IMG/VR virus record: IMGVR_UViG_2778261122_000006
Location: 1-6,285 of that record
Direction: 5' to 3' (one strand)
Source of the DNA: a virus
Taxonomy: Duplodnaviria > Heunggongvirae > Uroviricota > Caudoviricetes
DNA: 6,285 nucleotides
Below the pieces are notes generated by a model, which saw only the letters and a program-made list of their open reading frames with translations, made no database searches and was not told where the DNA came from. A program made the position numbers and the translations under genes. Below, piece after piece: positions 1 through 6,285 of this stretch. Position 1 is the stretch's first letter. Every line of letters starts with the position of its first letter.

Positions 1-369
1 ATGTCAAACATCAAAAAATACATCATTGATTACGACTGGAAAGCATCAATAGAAATTGAAATCGACCATGACGTAATGACAGAGGAAAAACTTCACCAGA
101 TTAATAATTTCTGGTCAGACTCTGAATACCGACTCAATAAACACGGCTCTGTATTAAATGCTGTATTAATCATGCTGGCGCAACATGCTCTGCTTATAGC
201 AATTTCAAGCGACTTAAATGCATATGGTGTTGTGTGTGAGTTCGACTGGAATGATGGAAATGGTCAGGAAGGATGGCCTCCAATGGATGGTAGTGAAGGA
301 ATAAGAATTACCGATATCGATACATCAGGAATATTTGATTCAGATGATATGACTATCAAGGCCGCCTGA
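1..369 (+). CDS. ea10: Ea10-like early-left operon protein (122 aa)
   Basis: ORF-track ORF, ATG 1-3, stop TGA 367-369. Protein MSNIKKYIIDYDWK... matches my recollection of lambda Ea10 (122 aa) and lies directly upstream of cIII as in lambda. Confidence 0.8.
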   Translation: MSNIKKYIIDYDWKASIEIEIDHDVMTEEKLHQINNFWSDSEYRLNKHGSVLNAVLIMLAQHALLIAISSDLNAYGVVCEFDWNDGNGQEGWPPMDGSEGIRITDIDTSGIFDSDDMTIKAA

Positions 370-441
370 GCGCGGCGTTACCGCATACCAATTACGCTTC
401 ACTCGAGGCGTTTTTCGTTATGTATAAATAAGGAGCACACC

Positions 442-606
442 ATGCAATATGCCATTGCAGGGTGGCCTGTTGCTGGCTGCCCTTCCGAATCTTTACTTGA
501 ACGAATCACCCGTAAATTACGTGACGGATGGAAACGCCTTATCGACATACTTAATCAGCCAGGAGTCCCAAAAAATGGATCAAACAATTATGGCTATCCA
601 GACTAA
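442..606 (+). CDS. cIII: CIII, lysogeny-promoting inhibitor of FtsH (HflB) protease (54 aa)
   Basis: Not in the ORF track (below length cutoff). ATG 442-444 preceded by AAGGAG at 430-435. My translation: [54 protein letters not shown], stop TAA 604-606; recognisable as lambda CIII. Confidence 0.9.
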   Translation: MQYAIAGWPVAGCPSESLLERITRKLRDGWKRLIDILNQPGVPKNGSNNYGYPD

Positions 607-718
607 ATTCACTATCGCCACTTTTATTGGCGATGAAAAGATGTTTCGTGAGGCCGTCGACGCTTATAAAAAATGGATATTAATACTGAAACTGAGATCA
701 AGCAAAAGCATTCACTAA
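575..718 (+). CDS. kil: Kil, host cell-division inhibitor (47 aa)
   Basis: ATG 575-577 preceded by AGGAG at 561-565. Product [47 protein letters not shown] is the C-terminal 47 aa of ORF-track ORF 449..718, whose upstream extension overlaps cIII and is not believed. Overlaps the cIII 3' end in another frame, as in lambda. Confidence 0.88.
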
Positions 719-793
719 CCCCCTTTCCTGTTTTCCTAATCAGCCTGGCATTTCGCGGGCGATATTTTCACAGCCATTTTCAGGAGTTCAGCC

Positions 794-1090
794 ATGAACG
801 CTTATTACATTCAGGATCGTCTTGAGGCTCAGAGCTGGGCGCGTCACTACCAGCAGATCGCCCGTGAAGAGAAAGAGGCAGAACTGGCAGACGACATGGA
901 AAAAGGCCTGCCCCAGCACCTGTTTGAATCGCTATGCATCGATCATTTGCAACGCCACGGGGCCAGCAAAAAAGCCATTACCCGTGCGTTTGATGACGAT
1001 GTTGAGTTTCAGGAGCGCATGGCAGAACACATCCGGTACATGGTTGAAACTATTGCCCGCCACCAGGTTGATATTGATTCAGAGGTATAA
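794..1090 (+). CDS. gam: Gam (GamS form), RecBCD nuclease inhibitor (98 aa)
   Basis: ORF-track [24 protein letters not shown]..., ATG 794 preceded by CAGGAG at 781-786. Recognised as lambda Gam short form. The upstream GamL extension is in a different frame here (see findings). Confidence 0.93.
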
Positions 1091-1095
1091 AACGG

Positions 1096-1881
1096 ATGAG
1101 TACAGCACTCGCAACGCTGGCAGGGAAGCTGGCTGAACGTGTCGGCATGGATTCTGTCGACCCACAGGAACTGATCACCACTCTTCGCCAGACGGCATTT
1201 AAAGGTGATGCCAGCGATGCGCAGTTCATCGCATTGTTGATCGTCGCCAACCAGTACGGCCTTAATCCGTGGACGAAAGAAATTTACGCCTTCCCTGATA
1301 AGCAGAACGGCATCGTTCCGGTGGTGGGCGTTGATGGCTGGTCCCGCATCATCAATGAAAACCAGCAGTTTGATGGTATGGACTTTGAGCAGGACAATGA
1401 ATCCTGCACATGCCGGATTTACCGCAAGGACCGCAATCATCCGATCTGCGTTACCGAGTGGATGGATGAATGCCGCCGCGAACCATTCAAAACCCGCGAA
1501 GGCAGAGAAATCACGGGGCCGTGGCAGTCGCATCCCAAACGGATGTTACGGCATAAAGCCATGATTCAGTGTGCCCGTCTGGCCTTCGGATTTGCTGGTA
1601 TCTATGACAAGGATGAAGCCGAGCGCATTGTCGAAAATACCGCATACACCGCAGAACGTCAGCCGGAACGCGACATCACTCCGGTTAACGATGAAACCAT
1701 GCAGGAGATTAACACTCTGCTGATTGCCCTGGACAAAACATGGGATGACGACTTATTGCCGCTCTGTTCCCAGATATTTCGCCGCGACATTCGCGCATCG
1801 TCAGAACTGACACAGGCCGAAGCAGTGAAAGCTCTTGGATTCCTGAAACAGAAAGCCACTGAGCAGAAGGTGGCAGCATGA
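1096..1881 (+). CDS. bet: Bet (Red-beta) single-strand annealing recombinase (261 aa)
   Basis: ORF-track [41 protein letters not shown]..., 261 aa; recognised as lambda Red-beta. Stop overlaps the exo start (ATGA). Confidence 0.97.
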
Positions 1882-2558
1882 CACCGGACATTATCCTGCA
1901 GCGTACCGGGATCGACGTGAGAGCTGTCGAACAGGGGGATGATGCATGGCACAAATTACGGCTCGGCGTCATCACCGCTTCAGAAGTTCACAACGTGATA
2001 GCAAAGCCCCGCTCAGGAAAGAAGTGGCCTGACATGAAAATGTCCTACTTCCACACCCTGCTGGCTGAGGTTTGCACCGGTGTGGCCCCGGAAGTTAATG
2101 CTAAGGCGCTGGCATGGGGAAAACAGTACGAGAACGACGCCAGAACCCTGTTTGAATTCACTTCCGGCGTGAATGTTACTGAATCCCCGATCATCTATCG
2201 CGACGAAAGTATGCGCACCGCCTGCTCTCCCGATGGTTTATGCAGTGACGGCAATGGCCTTGAGCTGAAATGCCCGTTTACCTCCCGGGATTTCATGAAG
2301 TTCCGGCTCGGTGGTTTCGAGGCCATAAAGTCGGCTTACATGGCCCAGGTGCAGTACAGCATGTGGGTGACACGAAAAGATGCCTGGTACTTTGCCAACT
2401 ATGACCCGCGTATGAAGCGTGAAGGACTGCATTATGTCGTGGTTGAGCGGGATGAAAAGTACATGGCGAGTTTTGACGAGATGGTGCCGGAGTTCATCGA
2501 AAAAATGGACGAGGCACTGGCTGAAATTGGTTTTGTATTTGGGGAGCAATGGCGATGA
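1878..2558 (+). CDS. exo: Exo (Red-alpha) 5'-3' dsDNA exonuclease (226 aa)
   Basis: ORF-track [50 protein letters not shown]..., 226 aa; recognised as lambda exonuclease. Start overlaps the bet stop by 4 nt. Confidence 0.97.
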
Positions 2559-2737
2559 AGCATCCTCACGATAATATCCGGGTAGGCGCGATCACTTTCG
2601 TCTACTCCGTTACAAAGCGAGGCTGGGTATTTCCCGGCCTTTCTGTTATCCGAAATCCCCTGAAAGCACAGCGGCTGGCTGAGGAGATAAATAATAAACG
2701 GGGAGCTGTATGCACAAAGCATCTCCCGTTGAGTTAA
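2555..2737 (+). CDS. Small early-left hypothetical protein, lambda orf60a-like (60 aa)
   Basis: ORF-track ORF 2549..2737 ([21 protein letters not shown]...). The third codon, ATG 2555-2557, has GGGGAG (2541-2546) at about 8-nt spacing and gives exactly 60 aa, so I place the start at 2555. Overlaps the exo stop. Confidence 0.7.
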
Positions 2738-2901
2738 GAACGAGTATCGAGATGGCACATAGCCTCGCTCAAATTGGAGTCAGGTTTGTGCCAATTCCAG
2801 TAGAAACAGACGAAGAATTTCATACGTTAGCCGCATCCCTTTCACAAAAGCTGGAAATGATGGTGGCGAAAGCAGAAGCAGATGAGAGAGACCAGGTATG
2901 A
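2710..2901 (+). CDS. Small early-left hypothetical protein, lambda orf63-like (63 aa)
   Basis: ORF-track [66 protein letters not shown], 63 aa, GGGAG at 2701-2705. Overlaps the 3' end of the preceding ORF by 28 nt in another frame. Confidence 0.7.
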   Translation: MHKASPVELRTSIEMAHSLAQIGVRFVPIPVETDEEFHTLAASLSQKLEMMVAKAEADERDQV

Positions 2902-2977
2902 CAACCACTGAATGCATTTTTCTGGCAGCGGGCTTCATATTCTGTGTGCTTATGCTTGCCGACATGGGACTTGTTCA

Positions 2978-3193
2978 ATGACACCTCAGCAAGAAAACGC
3001 CCTTCGCAGTATTGCCCGTCAGGCTAATTCTGAAATCAAAAAAGCCAGACAGCAGTTTCCGGATAAAAACGTCGATGACATTTGCCGTAGCGTACTGAAG
3101 AAGCACCGCGAAACGGTAACGCTGATGGGATTCACACCGACTCACTTAAGTCTGGCAATTGGCATGTTAAACGGCGTTTTTAAGGAACGGTGA
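2978..3193 (+). CDS. Hypothetical protein (71 aa)
   Basis: ORF-track ORF 2912..3193. The internal ATG at 2978 (MTPQQENALRSIARQANSEIKKARQQFPDK...) is my preferred start because the N-terminal 22 codons from 2912 have no RBS and read as non-protein-like (MHFSGSGLHILCAYACRHGTCS). Function unknown; start uncertain. Confidence 0.55.
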   Translation: MTPQQENALRSIARQANSEIKKARQQFPDKNVDDICRSVLKKHRETVTLMGFTPTHLSLAIGMLNGVFKER

Positions 3194-3213
3194 ACATGAA
3201 AAGCAAAATCATC

Positions 3214-3236
3214 AGGGAGCTACAGGCTCCTTTTTT
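3214..3236 (+). terminator. Candidate intrinsic terminator after the 71-aa ORF
   Basis: GGAGC (3216-3220), loop TACAG, GCTCC (3226-3230), then TTTTTT (3231-3236). Short GC stem plus T-run, 23 nt after the stop at 3193. Confidence 0.45.
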
Positions 3237-3291
3237 ATTATTCGCATTCACCCTCAAGCGTATTAACCAACAATTCAGGGATTAATGAAAG

Positions 3292-3513
3292 ATGGCAGAC
3301 ATCATTGATTCAGCATCAGAAATTGAAGAATTACAGCGCAACACAGCAATAAAAATGCGCCGCCTGAACCACCAGGCTGTATCTACCACTCATTGTTGTG
3401 AGTGTGGCGATCCGATAGATGAACGAAGACGACTGGCCGTTCAGGGTTGTCGGACTTGTGCCAGTTGCCAGCAAGATCTGGAGCTTATCAGTAAACAGAG
3501 AGGTTCGAAGTGA
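3292..3513 (+). CDS. TraR/DksA-family C4 zinc-finger protein (73 aa), likely RNA-polymerase secondary-channel regulator
   Basis: ORF-track ORF MADIIDSASEIEELQRNTAIKMRRLNHQAVSTTHCCECGDPIDERRRLAVQGCRTCASCQQDLELISKQRGSK. Cys35-x2-Cys38-x17-Cys56-x2-Cys59 matches the DksA/TraR C4 spacing; size is typical of phage and plasmid TraR-like proteins. Confidence 0.75.
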   Translation: MADIIDSASEIEELQRNTAIKMRRLNHQAVSTTHCCECGDPIDERRRLAVQGCRTCASCQQDLELISKQRGSK

Positions 3514-3665
3514 GCGAAATTAACTAGAAGCCAAAGATAAAATCATCGCTGAGCAGGAGAAAATCGCTAACGGAGAAAAGACAGTAAGTCAGTATATGAA
3601 AACCGCATGATATCATCAGATAAAAATCGGTCGTAAAGCGAAATATTAATACCAGAATAAACGAG

Positions 3666-3689
3666 TCGAGGTAAATTATATTACCTCGA
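3666..3689 (-). terminator. Perfect 9-bp inverted repeat between convergent genes; candidate terminator for the reverse-strand membrane gene
   Basis: TCGAGGTAA (3666-3674), loop ATTATA, TTACCTCGA (3681-3689). Lies 35 nt beyond the reverse-strand stop at 3724-3726; the reverse-strand RNA downstream is moderately U-rich (CUCGUUUAUUCUGG). No T-run on the + strand. Confidence 0.4.
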
Positions 3690-3723
3690 TAAATTAACTA
3701 AAACTTGCCCGCTATATACTATC

Positions 3724-4302
3724 TCATTCAGTATCATCACGCGCGGTCTGTGCATATGTCACTACCGCACCTAATGTATTAATTTTCTTTTCAACATAGA
3801 TAATATTATCGTACTCATAATTGCCATACGGATAGCAAATGCGAATATTCTCATGTAGATCGGGGTCATCCACCTCAGCTCCAGAACAACTTTTTGAACT
3901 ACCGGAAGTATACCGATACGGTGCAACATAAGACGATGTCTCTCCAGGCAAAAAATAAGTTAGTGTTGTAAGGGGTATAATCAGAAAAAATCCAGAAAAT
4001 ATGCATATCCCTGCATAAACCTTAAGGTATGCTGACAGACTCTTCCAGCCGCTTTGTTTTACTATCCCCTTCTTAACCCAAAACAGAGATAACAGAAAAG
4101 CTATTCCCATGCTAAACAGAATGTAATAGTGGGATATACTCTGATTAAGAAACGTGACCCTGTAGATATCTGCCCGCCACCAGAAGAAAAGGAAAATAAA
4201 GATCAGCCCTGAAACTGTCATGCAAATCAAATAAGGATACGAATCTTTTTTCATGTTTAGCGCCCATAAAATTTTTCCTGCCCGGACAAATTTACCATCC
4301 AT
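3724..4302 (-). CDS. AT-rich accessory (moron) integral membrane protein, three predicted TM helices plus acidic C-terminal domain; function unknown
   Basis: ORF-track reverse ORF 3724..4347, whose first codon is GTG. ATG candidates are at 4302 (MDGKFVRAGK...), 4254 (MKKDSYPY...) and 4221; none has a strong SD, so the start is uncertain. Hydrophobic segments LICMTVSGLIFIFLFFWW, YYILFSMGIAFLLSLFWV and VYAGICIFSGFFLIIPLTTLTYFL, with Lys-rich loops. GC is about one-third by eye, versus over 50 percent in flanking genes. Confidence 0.7.
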   Translation of the reverse strand: MDGKFVRAGKILWALNMKKDSYPYLICMTVSGLIFIFLFFWWRADIYRVTFLNQSISHYYILFSMGIAFLLSLFWVKKGIVKQSGWKSLSAYLKVYAGICIFSGFFLIIPLTTLTYFLPGETSSYVAPYRYTSGSSKSCSGAEVDDPDLHENIRICYPYGNYEYDNIIYVEKKINTLGAVVTYAQTARDDTE

Positions 4303-4528
4303 TTTTTGCGCAGAAAATAGCTCATTACTTACTGCACAATAATACACAAAATTGCGTAAATTTTTTGCATGGATTTTAGCTCTTTCAGCCGACGTTTAAG
4401 GGGTAAAGAGCATTTCCTAAAAGCAACTGACCAACCCAACAGAATGGGCTACCGCTTACGTTGAGAGCAAAAAAGTGTATAGCAGCAATGAACAGCATCC
4501 TCGCACTGACGGGGATTTCTTTTATCTG

Positions 4529-4553
4529 AGCTCGCTACGGCGAGTTTTGTTTT
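4529..4553 (+). terminator. Candidate intrinsic terminator or attenuator immediately upstream of the 114-aa gene
   Basis: CTCGC (4531-4535), loop TACG, GCGAG (4540-4544), then TTTTGTTTTA (4545-4554). The T-run is on the + strand only and runs into the GGAGA RBS of the ORF starting at 4567. Confidence 0.4.
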
Positions 4554-4566
4554 ATGGAGACAAGAA

Positions 4567-4911
4567 ATGTCAGATTTGGCTATGAAGGTTTTGAAATGGC
4601 AATCAACTGGCGATGTCGGCATCAGTAGCGCAACTCTTGCCTCAATCGCATGTGGCCTGAAAAAGAATATCTATGGTCATCACTTCGGCGCTCCCCATGA
4701 CGCAGCAGACTTTCGGCGATGCGTTGCACTTGTTGAGCAGATTCCAGAAATCAGAGATTCATTCGACAAGGTTGCAAAGCGCGTTCCGGCATTCAAAGGA
4801 ATCCTCAACGAATGGGATTCACTCGTTGCTCTGTTGAAGTCTGAAATGAAGACGTACGGGAACAAAGCACCAGAGACTTACAGAAGAATCAGCGAGCTAC
4901 GCAAGGACTAA
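4567..4911 (+). CDS. Hypothetical protein (114 aa), accessory gene upstream of xis
   Basis: ORF-track ORF MSDLAMKVLKWQSTGDVGISSATLASIACGLKKNIYGHHFGAPHDAADFRRC..., GGAGA (4556-4560) 6 nt before ATG 4567, stop TAA 4909-4911. No TM segments and no family I can name. Occupies the position taken by ea8.5 in lambda but is not that protein by length. Confidence 0.75.
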   Translation: MSDLAMKVLKWQSTGDVGISSATLASIACGLKKNIYGHHFGAPHDAADFRRCVALVEQIPEIRDSFDKVAKRVPAFKGILNEWDSLVALLKSEMKTYGNKAPETYRRISELRKD

Positions 4912-4967
4912 CCCGCCTCACACTCGATGAGGCCTGTTCATTTCTCAAGATATCCAGACCTACCATC

Positions 4968-4991
4968 GCCGCATCAATGCGGCTTTTTCTT
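4968..4991 (+). terminator. Intrinsic terminator upstream of xis
   Basis: Perfect 6-bp stem GCCGCA (4968-4973), loop TCAA, TGCGGC (4978-4983), then TTTTTCTT (4984-4991). Textbook hairpin plus T-run. Confidence 0.6.
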
Positions 4992-5003
4992 GCGTGTAAT
5001 TGC
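4990..5003 (+). promoter_or_regulatory. CII-binding site TTGC-N6-TTGC of a pI-type (int) promoter
   Basis: TTGC (4990-4993), GTGTAA, TTGC (5000-5003): the direct-repeat motif recognised by lambda CII, positioned over the xis start region as at lambda pI. The -10 and transcription start could not be confidently assigned by eye. Confidence 0.65.
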
Positions 5004-5015
5004 GGAGACTTTGCG

Positions 5016-5234
5016 ATGTACTTGACACTTCAGGAGTGGAACGCACGCCAGCGACGCCCAAGAAGCCTTGAAACAGTTCGTCGATGGGTACGCGAGTGCA
5101 GGATATTCCCTCCTCCGGTTAAGGATGGAAGAGAGTATCTGTTCCACGAATCAGCGGTAAAGGTTGACTTAAATCGACCAGTAACAGGTAGCCTTTTGAA
5201 GAGGATCAGAAATGGGAAGAAGGCGAAGTCATGA
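5016..5234 (+). CDS. xis: Excisionase Xis (72 aa)
   Basis: MYLTLQEWNARQRRPRSLETVRRWVRECRIFPPPVKDGREYLFHESAVKVDLNRPVTGSLLKRIRNGKKAKS is recognisable as lambda-type Xis. GGAG (5004-5007) precedes ATG 5016. The ORF-track start at 4977 lies inside the upstream terminator hairpin and is rejected. The 3' end overlaps the int start by 23 nt. Confidence 0.93.
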   Translation: MYLTLQEWNARQRRPRSLETVRRWVRECRIFPPPVKDGREYLFHESAVKVDLNRPVTGSLLKRIRNGKKAKS

Positions 5235-6285
5235 GCGCCGGGATTTACCCCCTAACCTTTATATAAGAAACAATGGATATTACTGCTACAGGGACCCAAG
5301 GACGGGTAAAGAGTTCGGATTAGGCAGAGACAGAAGGATAGCAGTTTCAGAGGCTATTCAGGCCAATATTGAGTTGCTATCTGAGAACAGGCGTGAGTCA
5401 CTGATAGACAGGATTAAAGGCGCTGACGCAATCACTCTTCATGTGTGGCTTGACCGATATGAAACAATTCTCAGCGAGAGGGGCATCAGACCGAAAACTC
5501 TACTCGACTACGCCAGCAAAATCAGGGCAATCCGAAGAAAATTGCCGGACAAACCGCTCACTGACATATCAACGAAAGAGGTGGCTGCAATGCTAAACAC
5601 CTACGTAGCAGAAGGTAAAGCGGCTTCCGCAAAATTAATCAGGTCAACCCTTGTTGACGTTTTTCGTGAGGCAATAGCCGAGGGGCATGTGGCAACGAAT
5701 CCGGTAACAGCAACCCGCACAGCAAAATCAGAAGTAAGGCGTTCAAGACTGACAGCTAATGAATATGTCGCGATTTACCATGCAGCCGAACCGCTCCCAA
5801 TCTGGCTGAGGCTGGCAATGGATTTGGCTGTCGTTACAGGGCAGAGAGTAGGCGATTTATGCAGAATGAAATGGTCAGACATAAACGACAACCATCTTCA
5901 CATTGAGCAGGGTAAAACAGGGGCTAAGCTCGCCATTCCGCTGATGCTAACGATTGACGCGCTCAATATCTCATTGGCTGATACACTACAGAAATGCAGG
6001 GAGGCCAGCGGCAGTGAAACTATAATCGCATCAAAGCATCACGATCCGCTTTCCCCGAAAACAGTATCGAAGTATTTTACAAAGGCGAGAAATGCATCTG
6101 GACTCTCATTTGATGGAGACCCGCCAACATTCCATGAACTGCGTAGCCTGTCAGCGAGGCTATACCGAAACCAGATTGGCGATAAGTTTGCTCAACGTCT
6201 TCTCGGGCATAAATCAGATTCAATGGCGGCGCGGTATAGGGACAGCCGTGGACGGGAATGGGACAAAATTGAAATCGACAAATGA
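5212..6285 (+). CDS. int: Lambda-family tyrosine integrase Int (357 aa)
   Basis: ORF-track ORF MGRRRSHERRDLPPNLYIRNNGYYCYRDPRTGKEFGLGRDRR... with the lambda Int arm-binding N-terminus. Catalytic-motif contexts are present: GQRVGDLC (Arg), HELRSLSARLY (His/Arg), LLGHKSDSMAARYRD (His and the Tyr nucleophile). Stop is the last codon of the window. Confidence 0.97.
   Translation: MGRRRSHERRDLPPNLYIRNNGYYCYRDPRTGKEFGLGRDRRIAVSEAIQANIELLSENRRESLIDRIKGADAITLHVWLDRYETILSERGIRPKTLLDYASKIRAIRRKLPDKPLTDISTKEVAAMLNTYVAEGKAASAKLIRSTLVDVFREAIAEGHVATNPVTATRTAKSEVRRSRLTANEYVAIYHAAEPLPIWLRLAMDLAVVTGQRVGDLCRMKWSDINDNHLHIEQGKTGAKLAIPLMLTIDALNISLADTLQKCREASGSETIIASKHHDPLSPKTVSKYFTKARNASGLSFDGDPPTFHELRSLSARLYRNQIGDKFAQRLLGHKSDSMAARYRDSRGREWDKIEIDK

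Follow-up and report, generated by a model that had tools for sequence, protein, structure and literature searches.

An HK022-type integrase gene in the early-left arm of a lambdoid prophage

The window, which is the whole 6,285-bp stretch of DNA analysed here, is the early-left arm of a lambdoid prophage and ends at the stop codon of an integrase gene, int. This gene very probably encodes an intact HK022-type Int, which would integrate and excise a lambdoid prophage at attB(HK022) between torS and torT. The assignment is based on sequence identity, domain content, the catalytic residues and the sequences of attL, attR and attB, all of which were read directly. The int gene, the att core, attB and the consequence of integration are already known and are not novel.

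The int gene and its alleles

On the + strand, int runs from an ATG at 5212 to a TGA at 6283-6285 (5212..6285) and encodes a heterobivalent tyrosine integrase of HK022 type, 357 amino acid residues plus the stop codon. This feature is real, far beyond chance. The peptide ELLSENRR...IRAIRR quoted in the original prediction corresponds to residues 54-109. The arm-type DNA-binding domain (PF09003) is encoded by codons 1-63 (5212..5400, + strand), the core-binding domain (PF02899/PF22022) by codons 75-176 (5434..5739, + strand), which include D99 (GAC, 5506-5508), and the catalytic domain (PF00589) by codons 177-357 (5740..6282, + strand), with Y342 at 6235-6237. Using Pfam, Arm-DNA-bind_1 (PF09003) matched residues 1-68 (E 1.2e-27), a SAM-like core-binding domain matched residues 81-158 and Phage_integrase (PF00589) matched residues 179-346 (E 2.5e-41). 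The top matches among solved structures were the lambda Int chains 5J0N, 1Z1G and 1Z1B, with E about 1e-177, and the arm domain matched the N-domain of lambda Int (PDB 1KJK, E 9e-33). R212, K235, H308, R311, H333 and Y342 are all present and aligned with lambda Int. The gene has the features of the lambda Int family, namely a C-terminal tyrosine-recombinase domain with the R-K-H-R-H/W-Y residues, a separate N-terminal arm-type DNA-binding domain and an adjoining, overlapping xis as directionality factor. NCBIfam gave sub-threshold matches of Int to Xer and integron models only, and no specific model.

The protein is 98% identical to the Int of phage Gally (7 substitutions), 97% to HK022 Int and 75% to lambda Int (356 aa, 91 differing columns). 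The differences from lambda Int are concentrated after residue 55, and residues 1-44 do not differ among the window, lambda and HK022. The arm domain (1-63) agrees with lambda Int at 54/63 residues and with HK022 Int at 60/63; in the core-binding domain (75-176) the corresponding counts are 77/102 and 99/102. Identity to lambda Int is 3/11 in the linker (64-74) and 132/181 in the catalytic domain (177-357). The original prediction had described a protein of 357 aa, of the lambda family but not lambda Int itself, with a lambda-like arm segment and catalytic motifs and many substitutions across the core-binding and catalytic domains. This description is borne out by the three lambda-type domains, the 75% identity, the unchanged residues 1-44 and the six catalytic residues. 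Of the 91 columns that distinguish lambda from HK022 Int, 84 in the window Int agree with HK022, 4 agree with lambda and 3 with neither. Relative to HK022 Int there are 11 substitutions, I45V, T46S, G58E, A78V, A117T, S137A, S234G, T245M, Q261K, S267G and N303D, four of which (I45V, T46S, G58E and S234G) are at positions where HK022 and lambda agree.

Megablast against deposited phages separated the int matches into two classes, 94-97% versus ~71.5% identical. The former contains four Stx1a-converting phages, phage Gally, HK022, mEp506, mEp235 and H19J, and the latter lambda, 434, HK97, HK106 and HK629/630. Nucleotide identity of int is 96.2% to HK022, 97.1-97.2% to Gally and the four Stx1a-converting phages, and ~71.5% to lambda, 434 and HK97; the highest value is 97.2% among phages and 97.9% among complete E. 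coli genomes. HK022 had been named in the original prediction as a relative with another specificity, which holds, but the gene had not been recognised as an allele of HK022 int itself (97% at the amino acid and 96.2% at the nucleotide level). The HK022 integrase (AAF30377.1; AF069308 / X51962) is also 357 aa long and is accompanied by an identical Xis, and its C' site, overlap and torS-torT attB are all as for the window Int. The P' arm differs from that of HK022 at several bases, and to the left of ~4550 the window is 434/lambda-like and not HK022-like. The closest deposited phage int alleles are those of Gally (Lederbergvirus, CAH1189519.1), whose Int has the V45/S46/E58 arm-domain variant in common with the window Int, and of the Stx1a-converting phages (LC744181-84). 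The backbone of Gally is P22-like and the Stx1a-converting phages are lambdoid, so that near-identical int genes reside in quite different phage backbones, which shows the int-xis module to be transferred as a cassette.

Identity to the reference phages changes within the gene. Nucleotide identity to lambda is ~99-100% across xis and the first ~18 int codons (to ~5265) and falls to 57-76% by ~5370. Identity to HK022 across xis/int is 94-100%, except for a dip to 84-88% around 5266-5366. A patch at 5312-5361, in the part of int coding for the arm domain, matches HK022 at 38/50 nt and Gally at 49/50 nt; it is flanked by identity of at least 94% on both sides and carries I45V and T46S. By its sequence this patch looks like a micro-mosaic inside the gene. 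The variant arm-domain patch and the P' arm are common to Gally-type modules.

Dorgai, Yagil and Weisberg reportedly found in 1995 that the changes N99D, S282P, G283K, R287K and E319R are enough to give lambda Int the specificity of HK022. At positions 99, 282, 283, 287 and 319 the window Int has D, P, K, K and R, as HK022 Int does, while lambda Int has N, S, G, R and E; the HK022-type codons after D99 are P282 and K283 (6055-6060), K287 (6070-6072) and R319 (6166-6168). None of the 11 substitutions relative to HK022 Int falls at these positions. Judged from its residues at the five switch positions, all of which agree, Int is predicted to be of HK022 specificity. The alignment that the original prediction had proposed as a check thus gives HK022-like and not lambda-like residues at the specificity positions. 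A literature search for an explicit list of all five positions returned partial statements only. 'Just five key residues' are said in a review to account largely for the specificity difference between lambda and HK022 (PMC6007267), N99D is described as a specificity determinant matching HK022 attB in a paper that also has a statement on N99D/H329R (PMC10863862), and position 319 is given as E in lambda Int and R in HK022 Int (PMC7736782).

Attachment sites and chromosomal location

The last bases of the window are the int stop codon, and in HK022 the annotated attP extends only into the final 7 bp of int. By that annotation, 6279..6285 (+ strand) is the extreme outer end of the P' arm of attP/attL, and the other parts of the att site lie beyond the window; the placing of attP outside the window in the original prediction was essentially right. 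Neither the deposited phages nor the complete E. coli genomes contain the window at 100% identity, but the exact 357-aa Int is recorded in many NCBI assemblies (82 index blocks). One contig of an NCBI draft genome (GCA_012907605.2, AATMKG020000023.1; L009) is 100% identical to the window across all 6285 bp. In L009 the int stop codon is followed by 73 bp aligning with the P' arm of HK022 and Gally, and then by CAACTTA TTCACCT AAAG|TGCACC and the GTG of torS, the sequence departing from HK022 attP after AAAG. Past AAAG it reads TGCACCGACC GTG AAT TTA..., which is the start of torS. In CAACTTA-TTCACCT-AAAGTGC the C' half-site and overlap of HK022 are fused to host sequence, and this attL core/host junction lies 7 bp ahead of the torS start codon. 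The 40-bp attL-torS junction is identical in 10/10 loci encoding the exact Int protein.

Contig L009 ends inside the prophage, and attR was taken from a related genome (L007), where torT is followed by AACCTTT TTCACCT AAAGGAT and then by an HK022-like P arm; the core of this attR is the HK022 C site. In E. coli K-12 MG1655, torS and torT are separated by 82 bp, and the empty attB in this interval is AACCTTT TTCACCT AAAGTGC, with 7 bp between its end and the GTG of torS. With CAACTTA-TTCACCT-AAAGGAT as attP, AACCTTT-TTCACCT-AAAGTGC as attB, CAACTTA-TTCACCT-AAAGTGC as attL and AACCTTT-TTCACCT-AAAGGAT as attR, the four sequences are, at the level of sequence, the pattern expected of exchange within an overlap of 7 bp, which on the conventional strand is AGGTGAA. 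The overlap AGGTGAA, the C' site TAAGTTG and the attB GCACTTT-AGGTGAA-AAAGGTT between torS and torT are those of HK022 specificity. The lambda core overlap, TTTATAC, differs from this TTCACCT-type core downstream of int. Lambda Int (PDB 1Z1B, 1Z1G and 5J0N; also the 434, HK97 and HK106 alleles) has its three domains, catalytic residues and arm-site layout in common with the window Int, but the lambda overlap is TTTATAC at gal-bio whereas that of the window Int is AGGTGAA at torS-torT. The P' and P arms have arm-type sites (consensus C/AAGTCACTAT) placed as in the attP of HK022 and of lambda. One of them, AGGTCATTAT, lies in the P' arm of attL at 6814-6823 of L009, outside the window, and two others, CAGTCACTAT and AGGTCACTAA, belong to the P arm at the attR of L007. 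Their conservation fits the conserved arm-binding domain of Int.

A different att specificity, which the original prediction had raised as possible, is supported by the HK022-type residues together with the torS-torT core. The core downstream of 6285 in L009 is of HK022 type and not the lambda-type core that the original prediction had named as part of a refuting result, and the question of the integration site is answered by an attB between torS and torT that is already published. Carey et al. 2019 (eLife, PMC6814406) place the HK022 attB between torS and torT and give 73 bp from the int stop codon to the junction. They report outward-reading HK022-like integrases of prophages at the torS site in ~5% of sequenced E. 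coli, and a phage-borne promoter in the int-torS interval that replaces the native torS promoters, and they showed that torS in HK022 lysogens is driven from an outward promoter in the P' arm (PMC6814406). A 21-bp BOB' attB with a 7-bp overlap is described by Kolot, Yagil and colleagues (PMC7736782). The published prophages at attB(HK022), for example that of E. coli NRG 857C (Carey et al., PMC6814406), have the site, the orientation, with int as the final gene and directed at torS, and the 73-bp spacing seen here; there is no difference of kind, and the window is one more allele. E. coli NRG 857C is itself among the E. coli genomes matched by int.

An int 95-99% identical in the divergent part of the gene is present in 403/5426 complete E. 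coli genomes. Adjacency to torS was inspected in two of them, SCU-301 and 97-3250, and in both the 95-99% identical int is directly upstream of torS with the attL-torS junction kept. At 6800-6896 of L009, int reads straight toward torS, whose GTG begins 94 bp after the int stop codon. The P' arm in L009 departs from that of HK022 at several bases and is closer to that of Gally. Integration at the torS site removes the native torS promoter region. The host flank of L009 (6881-11072; torS, yccM) is 96.9% identical to E. coli K-12 (L014) over 4192 bp, a divergence that, on this sequence, is inside the E. coli range and on its divergent side. An int fragment 88% identical to the window int occurs in ~320 genomes, most of them O157:H7. 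This variant was considered as a sister specificity class and set aside, since the copy in the single genome examined is a truncated pseudogene and uninformative on specificity. In that genome, E. coli O157:H7 FRIK2533 (L019 3450-4376), the int pseudogene is N-terminally truncated, has an internal stop and lies away from torS, inside another prophage and beside IS elements and the effector gene nleA.

The xis-int module and its mosaic surroundings

The excisionase gene xis (5016..5234, + strand) encodes 72 aa with an Exc domain (PF07825, E 7e-41) and shares 23 nt with the beginning of int; in the mechanical ORF list it begins further upstream, with the ATG at 4977. Its product agrees with HK022 Xis at 72/72 residues and with lambda Xis at 71/72. 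By its position, 4990..5021 (+ strand; ttgcgtgtaattgc) is the putative region of the pI promoter; its cII-type site, TTGC-N6-TTGC, spans 4990-5003. The annotated pI promoter and cII site of phage 434 (L015 5789-5820) have the same offset from the xis start codon as in the window. A sigma-70 consensus scan detected no promoter at the pI region, which was not counted against pI because pI is cII-dependent, that is, activator-dependent. Just upstream of pI, at the position of tI, is an intrinsic-terminator-like hairpin, GCCGCATCAATGCGGC, with a T run (4968..4989, + strand); the hairpin at 4968-4983 matches the terminator annotated in phage 434 (L015 5768-5790).

Upstream of this region the window contains ea10 (1-369), cIII and kil between ea10 and gam, gam (794-1090), bet (1096-1881), exo (1878-2558), homologues of orf60a and orf63 after exo, and an ORF for a DksA/TraR-type zinc-finger protein (3292-3513). 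On the 3' side of the zinc-finger ORF follow a counter-oriented ORF for a predicted membrane protein (3724-4347, minus strand), which opposes the direction of the pL operon, then orf114, xis and int. The 114-aa orf114 (4567-4911, + strand) stands in the left end (4550..4911) of the HK022-like module; its HK022 homologue is annotated 'N15 early protein homolog', and it matches PHROG 1229, a function-unknown family. Positions 1-4569 are 98.25% identical to phage 434, and positions 1-3525 are 97.5% identical to lambda. Positions 4550-6285 are 96.8% identical to HK022 and ~80% to 434. This switch of identity from 434 to HK022 therefore places a mosaic joint at ~4540-4570.

Two terminator-like hairpins, at 4497-4516 and 4528-4547, lie just upstream of the joint. 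A ~70-nt stretch at 4497-4569 is 86-89% identical to lambda and Gally, and 4471-4569 is 83% identical to HK022. The minus-strand membrane-protein ORF has 176 aa from an ATG at 4254 and 207 aa from an upstream GTG. It gave no Pfam hit and no PADLOC hit, and PADLOC found nothing among the neighbouring ORFs of the int region; its C-terminal half alone matches PHROG 1416, a function-unknown family, and its homologue in phage 434 is annotated 'putative membrane protein'. In position and orientation it resembles a moron or lysogenic-conversion gene. A polymorphism of this ORF (176 aa versus 49 + 40 aa) was rejected as a gene-calling difference, since in L008, L010 and L013, the three loci where the call is split, the DNA is the same as in the window.

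Proposed function and alternative readings

We propose that Int would be made by read-through from pL or from the cII-dependent pI promoter. Its N-terminal domain would bind the same arm-type sites as lambda Int, and its core-binding and catalytic domains would bind C/C' and B/B', recognising the HK022 core (C ATCCTTT / overlap AGGTGAA / C' TAAGTTG) and not the lambda core. With IHF, an Int tetramer would carry out strand exchange over the 7 bp of the overlap, with a Holliday junction as intermediate, and Xis with Fis would direct excision. Int and Xis, with host IHF and Fis, would in this way integrate and excise the prophage at attB(HK022), GCACTTT-AGGTGAA-AAAGGTT, leaving int to read outward to torS. 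The core sequence recognised would be the sole functional difference from lambda. The prophage itself is a mosaic of a 434/lambda-like early-left operon (ea10 to exo and beyond) and an HK022-like orf114-xis-int module. By analogy with its relatives this Int allele is presumably active, and the roles of pI, cII, IHF and Xis would be those assigned by homology to lambda and HK022. The integrated copies at the torS site may be taken as an indirect sign of past Int activity only, and the 11 substitutions relative to HK022 Int were counted against the assignment, as were the truncated or rearranged prophages of L005 and L007 and the base differences between the P' arm and that of HK022.

Two other specificities were considered. 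If the substitutions were neutral, the protein would be functionally lambda Int, acting at the gal-bio attB with the core GCTTTTTTATACTAAGTTG. The identity of residues 1-44 and of all catalytic residues to lambda Int, the 71/72 match of Xis and the best PDB matches all agree with this; however, overall identity to lambda Int is only 75%, HK022 residues stand at all five specificity positions, and every inspected copy adjoins torS, with none at gal-bio. The attL sequence refutes it, the downstream core being TTCACCT-type and not the TTTATAC overlap. With both the specificity residues and the core of HK022 type, lambda specificity is excluded, and we regard this reading as almost certainly wrong. 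Alternatively, the 11 substitutions relative to HK022 Int could retarget the enzyme to a new core and attB, as a third specificity class. A78V, A117T and S137A do fall in the core-binding domain, and five more in the catalytic domain, but the substitutions leave positions 99, 282, 283, 287 and 319 unaffected, and the attR core of L007 is the HK022 C site. A third specificity is excluded because the exact protein occupies the canonical HK022 attB, with the canonical overlap and C', in 10/10 loci; this alternative is extremely improbable.

The HK022-type assignment would also hold if int were an intact-looking relic in a defective, grounded prophage that has lost excision in its host, a reading that bears on the state of the prophage and leaves the identity of the gene unchanged. 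The exact Int is found in the rearranged and truncated prophages of L005 and L007, exo being truncated in both, the distance from torT to int in L007 is only ~6.6 kb, and contig L009 ends within the prophage. Against this, the int ORF is full length with all catalytic residues kept, xis, the pI region and attL are intact, and the full-length copies in L004, L006, L008, L009 and L010 are at most 2 SNPs from the window in 6285 bp, which suggests recent spread. We consider a relic unlikely, with some chance left to it. In L005, window-like DNA starts inside exo at ~5098 (window 2309) and abuts lysis and terminase genes; in L007 it starts inside exo at ~5298 (window 2509) and abuts tail-fibre/baseplate genes near torT. 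From their sequences, these two prophages with identical Int appear to be grounded remnants keeping the int-xis end. A measurable effect of the 11 substitutions on activity, on arm binding or on how stringently the core is recognised is very unlikely. In that case the allele would represent natural tuning of an HK022-type Int, and the outward torS promoter in the P' arm might be regulated differently as well.

An intact HK022-type Int remains the preferred reading, and its significance beyond correct annotation is small. HK022 Int serves as a genome-engineering tool. At the torS site, a prophage replacing the native torS promoter alters how TMAO respiration is regulated under aerobic conditions (Carey et al. 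2019, PMC6814406). The gene should be annotated as an integrase of HK022 type whose attB lies upstream of torS, and not as lambda Int, and the locus is a clean textbook case of lambdoid mosaicism, in which a 434-like early-left region is joined to an HK022-like orf114-xis-int cassette.
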